NCBI GenBank assembly: GCA_951406725.2 | Contig: OX597821.1 | Location: 14,818,001 to 14,882,000 of the forward strand | Source of the DNA: Octopus vulgaris | Lineage: Eukaryota | DNA: 64,000 bases | Direction of reading: 5' to 3' | Part shown: one piece after another, positions 6,738 through 61,107 of the stretch | How positions within the stretch are numbered: position 1 is the stretch's first letter | How the letters are laid out: each line of letters begins with the position of its first letter | Translations under genes and position numbers: made by a program | The notes under the pieces: generated by a model | The model's input: only the letters and a program-made list of their open reading frames with translations | What the model was told of the DNA's origin: nothing | The model's database searches: none

Positions 6738-7164
6738 CTAATAATCTTTTCTACTCTAGGCACAAGGCCCGAAATTTTTGGGGAGGTGGCTAGTTGATTT
6801 GATCGACCACAGTACGCAACTGTTACTTAATTTATCGACCCAGTACGAAACTGGTACTTAATTTATCGACCCTGAAATACCTATTTCTTTACTAGGTATT
6901 TGAACTCAGAACGTAACGGCAGACGAAATACCTATTTCTTTACTACCCACAGGGGCTAAACACAGAGGGGACAAACAAGGACAGACAAACGGATTAAGTC
7001 GATTACATCGACCCCAGTGAGTAACTAGTACTTAATTTATCGACCCCGAAAGGTTGAAAGGTAAAGTCGACCTCGGCGGAATTTGAACTCAGAACGTAGC
7101 GACAGACGAAATACTGCTAAGCATTTTGCTCGGCGTGCTAACGTTTCTGCCAGCTCGCCGCCTT
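6738..7164 (-). mobile_element. Composite SINE family C (head, tail-1 unit, remnant unit, tail-2 end) inserted in a family A relic
   Basis: TSD CTTGTACTTA at 6728-6737 and 7165-7174; junction GAAATAC|CTATTTCTTT present twice (~6880, ~6930). Confidence 0.8.
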
Positions 7165-7172
7165 CTTGTACT

Positions 7173-29029: not shown

Positions 29030-30550
29030 AATAATGTCTTCCAATTTTAGCAAAAGGCCAGCAATTCCAGGGGAGGGGTAAATCGATTACATCGACCCTA
29101 GTGCTCTGCTGGTACTTATTGCATTGAGCCTGAAAGGATGAAAGGCAAAATTGACCTCGGTGGAATTTGAACTCAGAACGTAAAGACGGACGAAATACTG
29201 TTAAGCATTTTGTCCGGCGAGCTAACGATTCAGCCAGCTCACCGCCTTTCCTACTTCTAGAAATAACAGCTATGGATCTAGGCGCAAAGTTAGCAAGATT
29301 TTGATGGGCATGATTACAATCGATTGTATCTGTATTGAAATTTATTTTATCAACACCGAAAGGATGCAAAATAAAAATAACTTCGGCAGAATTTGAACTC
29401 GGAACGTAAAAAATTGGATAAAAATTGCTACAAAGCAATTTGTCCGACGCGCTAGCTATTTTCCCATTTCACCGTCTTTGTCATAAAATCCTTCTTAAAA
29501 TAAGTACAAAGCCTGAAATTTTTGGTGAGGGGGTCTAGTCGGTTACATCGACCCCATACTTTGACTGGTACTTAATTTATCAACCCCAAAAGGATCAAAA
29601 GCAAAGTCTACCTAGGCTGAATATGGTTTCATTAACCATTTTGTCCGGAATGCTATCGTTTCTTATTTCTTTATTGACCACGCGGGGCTAAACATCGAGG
29701 AGACAAACAAGGACAGATAAAGGGATTAGGTCGATTACATCGACTCCAGTGCGTAACTGGTACTTAATTAATCGACCCCGAAAGGATGAAAGGCAAAGTC
29801 GACCTCGGCGGAATTTGAACTCAGAACGTAACGGCAGACGAAATACCGCTAAGCATTTGGCCCAGAATGCTATCGTTTCTGCCAGCTCACCACATTTGTT
29901 ACATCATTTGTTGATATATTAGTCGTCTAATAATGTTGTTAATTTCTAACTTTGGTACAAAGTCACATATTTATTAAGGGAAAATTGAATTTAGTTGACC
30001 AAACTGATCCTTACAGGAAGTGATAATTACATCAACTCTGACCTTACTTGGATCACAAAACTTAGAGAAGAGACTGAATATCGTCAGCCATTATTAATAA
30101 AGATTAGAAGGATAGCGGATGAATAGAATCGTTAGGGCGTCGGAAATAAATGCCTTGCACTATTGAGTCCGCCTTTTATATGATCAGAATTAAAATCCCG
30201 TCAATGTCAAATACGGGTAGATAAAATAAAATACCACTCTAGTACTAAGGTCCATTTATTTCGATAAGCCTACTCCTTTTCCACAAAATTTCCGGTCTCG
30301 TGCTTAGGTTATAAGCAATTATAAGAATTAGAAAAGTAATGGACTGACAAAATTGTTAGGGCGTTGGACAACCCGCCGACAAAGAACTCTTGTTATGATC
30401 CTTTACGATTTAAGCTGAAATCTCATCGAATTTAACTTTCATCCCTCAAGAGTCAACAGAAGAAAGTAGGAAAGTATTGAGGTAGATATAATCGATTTGC
30501 CACCACTCCTACACCATGATTTCCGGCCTTGTGCGTATGTTAGAAATAAC
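29030..30550. mobile_element. Dense cluster of ~7 SINE family C copies of different ages, including one nested insertion
   Basis: Minus copies 29030-29250, 29270-29480, 29490-29892 (nested), 29940-30090; plus copies 30110-30320, 30340-30550. Confidence 0.75.
29664..29864 (-). mobile_element. Young tail-1 SINE C inserted into the tRNA head of an older SINE C
   Basis: 16-bp TSD GAATGCTATCGTTTCT at 29648-29663 and 29865-29880, carrying host-private substitutions. Confidence 0.85.
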
Positions 30551-48425: not shown

Positions 48426-49237
48426 AATTTGAACTCACAACGTAACGGCAGACGAAATACCTATTTCTTTATTACCCACAAGGGGCTAAACACAGAGGGA
48501 GACAAACAAGGACAGACATAGGTATTAAGTCGATTACATCGACCCCAGTGCGTAACTGGTACTTAATTTATCGACCCCGAAAGGATGAAAGGCAAAGTCG
48601 ACCTCGGCGGAATTTGAACTCACAACGTAACGGCAGACGAAATACCTATTTCTTTATTACCCACAAGGGGCTAAACACAGAGGGGGACAAACAAGGACAG
48701 ACATAGGTATTAAGTCGATTACATCGACCCCAGTGCGTAACTGGTACTTAATTTATCGACCCCGAAAGGATGAAAGGCAAAGTCGATCTAGGCGGAATTT
48801 GAACTCACGACGTAACGGCAGACGAAATACCTATTTCTTTATTACCCACAAGAGGCTAAACACAGAGGGGGACAAACAAGGACAGACATAGGTATTAAGT
48901 CGATTACATCGACCCCAGTGCGTAACTGGTACTTAATTTATCGACCCCGAAAAGATGAAAGGCAAAGTCGACCTCGGCGGAATTTGAACTACAACGTAAC
49001 GGCAGACGAAATACCTATTTCTTTATTACCCCAGGGGCTAAACACAGAGGGGGACAAACAAGGACAGACATAGGTATTAAGTCGATTACATCGACCCCAG
49101 TGCGTAACTGGTACTTAATTTATCGACCCCGAAAGGATGAAAGGCAAAGTCGACCTCGGCGGAATTTGAACTCACAACGTAACGGCAGACGAAATGGCGC
49201 TAAGCATTTCGCCCGGCGTGCTAATGTTTCTGCCAGT
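48426..49237 (-). repeat. Head-to-tail array of four ~185-bp tail-1 SINE C units under a single 5' head
   Basis: Units start at 48461, 48646, 48831 and ~49015 with junction GACGAAATAC|CTATTTCTTT; A-box head only at 49196-49237; few differences between units. Confidence 0.9.
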
Positions 49238-60505: not shown

Positions 60506-61107
60506 CTCTCTTACTCTTTTACTTGTTTCAGTCATTTGACTGCGGCCATGCTGGAGCAACACCTTTAGTCGAGCAAATCGACCCCGGGACTTATTCTTTG
60601 TAAGCCCAGTACTTATTCTATCGGTCTCTTTTTGCTGAACCGCTAAGTGACGGGGACGTAAACACACCAGCATCGGTTGTCAAGCAATGCTAGGGGACAA
60701 ACACAGACACACAAACACATACACACATACATATATATATACATATATACGACAGGCTTCTTTCAGTTTCCGTCTACCAAATCCACTCACAAGGCTTTGG
60801 TCGGCCCGAGGCTATAGTAGAAGACACTTGCCCAAGATGCCACGCAGTGGGACTGAACCCGGAACCATGTGATTGGTAAACAAGCTACTTTATTTCATGA
60901 AAGATTCGCCATTAAGGCGTTACATAGAGGGGACATACAATTACAGACAAACATATAGGGTGTAGTAGCTTAAAACGTTGGTGATTACAATAAAATATAT
61001 ATAATATTTACAATATAAAGTTTTTAAAATTAGGTATTATACAGTAGGGCACGGATCCCAGCCATCTGGGTAAACAAGCTACTTACCACACAGCCACTCC
61101 TGCGCCT
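60506..61107 (-). mobile_element. SINE family A with a 178-bp insertion in its tRNA head
   Basis: Colinear with full-length copies apart from 60891-61068. Confidence 0.9.
60891..61068 (-). mobile_element. 5'-truncated non-LTR retroelement 3' end sharing tail-1 with SINE C
   Basis: 16-bp TSD GGTAAACAAGCTACTT at 60875-60890 and 61069-61084; 27/31 identity of 60922-60952 to tail-1; same TATTTC terminus. Confidence 0.75.

Follow-up and report, generated by a model that had tools for sequence, protein, structure and literature searches.

The stretch of Octopus vulgaris DNA analysed here (64,000 nt, hereafter the window; host genome size 2.8 Gb) contains a short retroelement fragment inserted into the head of a SINE that we call SINE A. 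The insert and its host occupy positions 60506–61107 and consist of the following parts:

60506–60874 (minus strand): what remains of the host SINE A, including a B-box match near 60849–60859; its 3' end is approximate
60875–60890 (minus strand): 3' copy of the target-site duplication (TSD), whose first nucleotides are the fixed target of LINE clade A
60891–61068 (minus strand): 5'-truncated 3' end of a SINE-A-targeting Tx1-like LINE of subfamily A1, wholly within the 210-nt 3' UTR and 100% identical to the 3' end of the full-length copy L031
60907–60919 (minus strand): terminal stem-loop of the LINE tail, present in both folds and likely serving as a recognition element for the reverse transcriptase (RT)
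60964–60971 (minus strand): 8-nt "anti-target" segment of the tail, the reverse complement of the target
61069–61084 (minus strand): 5' copy of the TSD, whose last 4 nt are also microhomology with the element
61085–61107 (minus strand): 5' part of the host SINE A head, with an A-box match at 61086–61096

A preliminary description of the window had reported a 178-bp insert flanked by a 16-bp repeat, and both were borne out. The repeat is exact and cannot be extended on either side; since its last 4 nt also match the element just upstream of the break, the true TSD measures 12–16 bp. The insert lies 1 nt 3' of the A-box match (one mismatch) and the minus-strand host is co-oriented with it, also as described. 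Folding recovered the CGCC-ATTAA-GGCG stem, and the TATTTC terminus is indeed common to the insert and to tail-1, one of the tail types of a second SINE, SINE C. A claimed 27/31 match between the insert and tail-1 was found for the copy at 6960 but not for those at 48–49 kb, which match at about 83% over 29 nt. ARAGORN called no tRNA in the whole window, and a SINE A copy searched against Rfam with E up to 10 matched no tRNA. The heads of SINE A and SINE C carry A- and B-box matches with 1–2 mismatches, and it is from these box motifs alone that the heads are called, provisionally, tRNA-like. The contigs compared at the insert locus break at the SINE head, so an empty allele could not be seen in them.

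The insert was predicted to belong to an autonomous LINE, and it does. A DNA search with its sequence, from which 40 of 113 candidates were scored, led through the longest copies to a Tx1-like element of 5.4–5.7 kb, including copies with an intact ORF2; we refer to this LINE as clade A. Its ORF1 carries a zinc knuckle, and the ORF2 downstream carries Exo_endo_phos (APE endonuclease), RVT_1 and zf-RVT (C-terminal zinc finger) domains, in L032 as an uninterrupted frame of 1140 codons. The top PDB match of ORF2 is human L1 ORF2p (8.5e-66; R2, 7.9e-22). This arrangement of ORF1, APE, RT and zinc finger is that of the L1 group, as are the fixed 3' end, the variable 5' truncation and the presence of either a TSD or a target deletion. 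Subfamily A2 is a younger sister of A1 (92% at the amino-acid level) with many intact copies, 96–100% identical among themselves, and 115 exact tail ends genome-wide. A third subfamily is represented by one copy (L305; 82% at the amino-acid level over the C-terminal region) at the same SINE A site. The only named close homologue of the LINE comes from Argonauta hians, at 52% identity. Anatomy and behaviour make membership in Tx1 likely; a tree built by a quick method with SH-aLRT support only holds own-genome rows and one outgroup, with no named Tx1 member in it, and searches for named Tx1 reference sequences returned none. The hairpin loop of the clade A endonuclease differs from the loop in seven sister sequences; this loop is described as contributing to the choice of target (PMC1950540). 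Two further observations concern the surroundings of these elements. At L034 (reverse strand, 477–1763) an RT frame of 428 codons, from a LINE of another type, is found upstream of the A1 copy, and Tx1 matches spaced by about 5.4 kb at C2:73046133–73068136 and C9:2664555–2675449 are likely tandem arrays of full-length elements.

Homing of the LINE to a SINE head in a fixed orientation, as the preliminary description had it, held throughout: all 83 distinct clade A loci examined end at one site motif just 3' of the A box of SINE A. Fifty-six of these loci were chosen by similarity to the insert or to the LINE protein and not by their flank; 40/40 A1 and 16/16 A2 loci are at the site, 54 with an exact AAGTAG and 2 with one change. 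The first 30 of the 115 exact A2 ends, 3 of them shared with the 56, are likewise all at the site (28 scored as SINE A, 1 as SINE A with an internal deletion and 1 as the 5' end of a passenger). On the 3' side, 47 of the 56 loci run on as SINE A. Of the nine exceptions, five enter the 5' end of a related element with its own target copy, two pass through a short passenger tail into SINE A, and two fit neither pattern: L073 and L075, both A1, leave SINE A sequence after 8–10 nt, which counts against the reading we prefer. Among exact A1 ends genome-wide, 23/27 are followed by AAGTAGC and the other four by the same site with one change; a recount with a degenerate pattern gave an exact AAGTAG flank in 28/31. 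The genome holds 106,016 intact target sites (exact 21-mer), and the chance of landing at the site is about 2e-5 per insertion (1.9e-5; 1.1e-4 by a generous count). Background AAGTAGC sites lie in SINE A heads in just 22/43 cases, so clade A reads more than this 7-mer. The meaningful disruption of SINEs that had been proposed did not stand up: 142 exact LINE ends compare with 106,016 intact sites, a negligible effect on the SINE population of about 0.1% of sites.

The 5' ends behave quite differently from the almost invariant 3' junction. Break points are many and varied, from 133 bp to full length, and the junctions span a 13-bp deletion to a 16-bp duplication. At 44 of the 56 loci the 5' side was called as rejoining the 5' half of a SINE A head (L032, counted among them, is really a passenger tail plus target copy), 10 gave no such call and 2 ran off the locus. 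The varied truncations show that the insertion events were independent. The constancy of the 3' junction could in principle reflect hitch-hiking, in which one ancestral LINE-in-SINE chimera was amplified and the common junction records a single event; such growth from one unit likely took place in homogeneous SINE C arrays (L044, see below). Full-length copies carry a +16 junction, that is, a 16-nt target copy at the 5' end, and in 8/19 of them it does not match the 16-mer at the 3' end of the same copy. Some of the target sequence may therefore be carried by the RNA, which would also suit hitch-hiking. Dozens of 5' break points, each rejoined to the 5' half of a SINE A head, speak against it, however, as do host SINE A variants that differ from locus to locus, and we find this account scarcely credible. 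The 16-mer mismatches suggest that part of the 5' target copy is templated by the element itself. A target regenerated at the 5' end would explain the head-to-tail stacks that relatives and ORF1-only passengers form at the SINE A site; one such passenger, ORF1-only and 2.1 kb long, lies upstream of the L032 element. Several diverged families of ORF1-only passengers (65–90% identical) were seen in stacks at L032 (C2:95671800–95681300), L003, L013, L014, L035, L074 and L262.

SINE C was initially described as the parasite of the same LINE. Three loci in the window bear on it, each belonging to a system separate from clade A:

6745–7165 (minus strand): a rearranged tail-2 SINE C to which a tail-1 SINE C is joined at head position 51; the fragment at 6880 is part of this locus
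29480–29891 (minus strand): a tail-2 SINE C with a tail-1 SINE C inserted in its A box, at about position 18
48426–49236 (minus strand): an array built of four tail-1 SINE C units (about 185 bp each), with junctions at head position 51 and a 36-nt piece of a head at its end

Seven tail-1 ends had been listed as lying in SINE heads; they come from only these three loci, the 6880 end being a tail fragment of about 14 nt in the same rearranged locus as 6930. Placement within the A box applies to 29664 only, whereas the main junction, at head position 51, is about 26 nt beyond the best A-box match. The statement that none is in unique DNA was not borne out on a wider sample. Among the first 30 exact, unselected tail-1 ends on contig C1, 16 are in SINE C heads (position 51 in 15 cases and position 18 in one; 13/27 after collapsing arrays), none is in SINE A, and 14 are elsewhere, 10 of these with a candidate TSD. 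Over-representation in SINE heads was nevertheless confirmed for this Tx1-derived tail: of 20,813 exact tail ends genome-wide, 5,647 are followed by an exact SINE C head 11-mer, that is, at least 27%, where both counts are of exact matches and include array-internal junctions and the larger takes in some LINE ends.

Insertions of tail-1 outside SINE heads mostly begin GGT(A), a motif found in the 5' TSD copy as well, and a GGT start or a location in a SINE C head accounts for 24/30 ends. One insertion is in the ORF2 of a LINE (L037) and one lies antisense in a SINE C body (L234). Flanks with GGTATT are in a SINE C head for 11/15 tail-1 ends as against 13/220 background sites, so the enrichment of SINE C in its own head goes beyond the hexamer alone. 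Self-insertion of SINE C is real, because a full-length copy with a TSD sits inside a diverged head at L253 and because in several dimers the host, of another tail type, carries the outer TSD. The units of homogeneous arrays such as L044 have private changes in common, and these arrays likely grew by tandem amplification from one unit; unequal recombination has been proposed for tandem SINE arrays of bivalves (PMC11481361). A rarer second junction, at about head position 18 within the A box, was seen at 29664 in the window and at L066, L067, L219 and L232.

Clade A and SINE C have neither their 3' terminal sequence nor their insertion target in common, as a LINE and its partner SINE would. The last 30 nt of tail-1, compared without gaps, match the insert at 8/30 positions, A2 at 11/30 and other Tx1 families at 27–28/30, and global identity is 44/65 to clade A versus 47–50/66 to other Tx1 families. 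The proposal that the two form one system was consequently dropped. A Tx1 family other than clade A, one preferring GGTA(TT), likely mobilises tail-1 SINE C. No LINE ending at the GGTATT site of SINE C turned up when LINE ends were inspected in 160 fetched loci; these loci, which include some duplicates and some that lack a clear end, were drawn from more than 20,000 first-look candidates and make a small sample, no proof of absence. Nor did such a LINE turn up upstream of 60 tail-1 loci on C1. One candidate partner, L241, was rejected as a tail-only SINE fragment.

Sister LINEs of clade A, 56–65% identical to it, use U1, U2, microsatellites or varied DNA, and their ends at multicopy targets conform to the preference typical of Tx1 families. 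U2 snRNA genes are the target of one family, whose copies end at their first bases at L192 (C23:43309000–43316500) and L193 (C3:20826600–20834100), the latter with stacking and a 5' target copy as at the SINE A site. A Tx1 copy at L320 (C18:49050970–49052320) terminates at the 5' end of a U1 snRNA gene, and other families end in (TTA)n and (TC)n microsatellites (L127, L317 and L323; L128 and L146). In addition, L138 has a U2 gene nearby on the opposite strand. Repeats with a CTGA.GA...GAAAC-like motif, which we presume to be hammerhead- or Penelope-like, lie just downstream of the ends of several Tx1 families (L111–L115, L309 and L310; L099, L137, L141, L191, L301, L302, L308, L311, L314 and L316; L101, L107 and L318); Rfam called no hammerhead at the flanks of the three loci tested, L113, L141 and L107. 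Members of an older Tx1 group have in common a flank with a short palindrome, a repeat target (L150, L151, L160, L163–L165, L167, L169, L171 and L175).

These targets bear on the mechanism originally put forward, in which Pol III factors (TFIIIC/TFIIIB) guide one LINE, together with SINE C as its parasite, to SINE heads generally. Elements of this kind exist: tethering by Pol III factors places Ty1, Ty3 and the Dictyostelium TRE elements next to genes that differ in sequence. Clade A shares with them a location at Pol III-type sequences, and every clade A end is 1 nt 3' of an A box; 16/30 tail-1 ends lie in SINE C heads, at two positions, and a block of about 30 nt is common to both tails. Clade A is, however, inside one sequence of one SINE family rather than at many Pol III genes irrespective of local sequence, and no tRNA gene was called in the 56 clade A loci scanned. 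Cross-targeting is absent, with 0/83 clade A ends in SINE C heads and 0/30 tail-1 ends in SINE A. The block common to the tails is also present in Tx1 families with other targets, and tail-1 is found in other DNA too, mostly at GGTA, including the LINE ORF2 and the antisense SINE body mentioned above. Insertion at one exact base and stacking into 16-nt target copies likewise tell against Pol III factors as the steering agent. Sister families occur at the 5' ends of U1 and U2, which are Pol II genes (PMC4494074), and in (TTA)n or (TC)n. These sisters point to sequence-specific nicking and not to Pol III tethering. We judge steering by Pol III factors to be very improbable, and as an account of a single system it is already largely refuted. 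What is observed is one base, one orientation and two distinct sequence targets, one for clade A and one for SINE C tail-1; tethering is not needed to account for the targeting, and may have a minor role, for example through a B-box-bound factor.

With considerable confidence, we interpret the insert as a 5'-truncated copy of a young, L1-group, Tx1-like LINE that inserts at a fixed base of SINE A and whose endonuclease likely reads the sequence there. The clade A endonuclease would recognise the SINE A head sequence beginning AAGTAGC, and a nick at that base would prime reverse transcription (target-primed); we infer both the nicking chemistry and that the specificity resides in the endonuclease. 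The segment of the tail complementary to the target possibly aids the enzyme. SINE C would be mobilised by a different Tx1 family preferring GGTA(TT); its best such site is in the SINE's own head, and this would give rise to dimers and the seeds of arrays beside many insertions elsewhere.

A larger part for the tail segment can be envisaged, in which 8–10 nt of the tail pair with the top strand of the target, or with read-through RNA, and help the endonuclease to open or select the site. The longest reverse-complement match between tail and target is 8 nt in A1, reached by 5/1000 shuffles, and 9 nt in A2 (0/1000); passengers match over 10, 7 and 7 nt (0, 75 and 10 of 1000), and 0/11 other Tx1 tails show such a match (244–1000 of 1000). 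The motif is present in 84/92 ends of clade A or its passengers (some loci counted twice), its distance from the end differs between LINEs and passengers, and a fold of tail plus flank closes a 9-bp stem with the segment. In the young SINE C subfamily a comparable match of 9 nt is seen (z −2.5). Set against this, the tests are post hoc and the elements are related, hence the tests are not independent. The whole fold of LINE tail plus flank does not surpass that of shuffles (z −0.40), and SINE C copies that lack the segment use GGT sites too, 24/42 as compared with 50/57 for copies with it. RNA-assisted targeting thus seems to us doubtful, though worth keeping in view. We hold it unlikely that the several observations combine into a broader scenario, an octopod Tx1 radiation retargeted to SINE heads in which a guide-like segment in the 3' UTR of clade A assists the APE endonuclease while a SINE, in parallel, targets its own head and generates arrays. 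If true, an L1-group LINE would be selecting its sites with RNA assistance, through an internal segment of its tail. The complementarity of segment and target is directly testable.

The targeting of SINE A reverses the usual relation of LINE and SINE, in that a SINE with more than 100,000 intact sites is the landing pad of a LINE. Furthermore, young copies with intact ORF2 and near single-base specificity, beside sister families with other targets, form a natural comparative series. This series bears on how APE endonucleases gain or switch specificity, which has so far been studied with loop grafts (PMC1950540).

Several known elements resemble parts of this picture. Dada DNA transposons, like clade A on our reading, insert at the A box by sequence recognition, but they are DNA transposons with a short TSD and use real tRNA genes (PMC8869645). 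Keno is described at U2, Kibi and Koshi at microsatellites and NeSL/LIN at tRNA genes (PMC4494074, PMC4640811); the octopus sister families are likewise at U2, U1 and microsatellites, whereas clade A uses a retroposed tRNA-like head, with no true tRNA gene hit in the 56 loci scanned. SINE C is comparable to SINEU-1/2/3, which are mobilised by Tx1-Mar and, as reported in PMC4494074, also combine a partial target preference taken from their Tx1 partner with tandem copies; the preference is given there as 13–90%, while for SINE C it amounts to at least 27% of exact tail-1 ends, and the preferred site of SINE C differs in being in its own head. PMC4494074 also describes Tx1 families directed at other transposons, at snRNA genes and at microsatellites, together with their SINE passengers and tandem stacking. 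The transposon-targeting ones include Tx1 (Tx1L) in Tx1D of Xenopus, Tx1-Mar in Mariner-N4_AMi, Tx1-9_AMi in Harbinger, and Tx1-8_Crp and Tx1-4_AMi in LTR elements (PMC4494074), and Tx1L-EN has been shown to nick its own target site (PMC1950540). Clade A resembles them as an APE-type LINE with a fixed target inside a multicopy element, a TSD of about 16 bp, tandem stacking at the site and non-autonomous passengers with the same target, and its site motif in 83/83 loci compares with a threshold of 20% for "specific" families (PMC4494074). It differs in that its passengers are ORF1-only rather than snRNA-headed SINEs and that its target is a SINE head beside an A box, not a DNA transposon or LTR element (PMC4494074). 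Thirteen recently active L1-Tx1 families have been reported from O. vulgaris in a paper whose main text uses neither "target" nor "nested" (PMC13282606), and our literature search found no Tx1 family described as SINE-targeting; a prior description is possible, for example in Repbase Reports. As far as the literature was searched, clade A thus follows a known habit, that of Tx1 elements inserting into other transposons, and directs it at a new target, a SINE.
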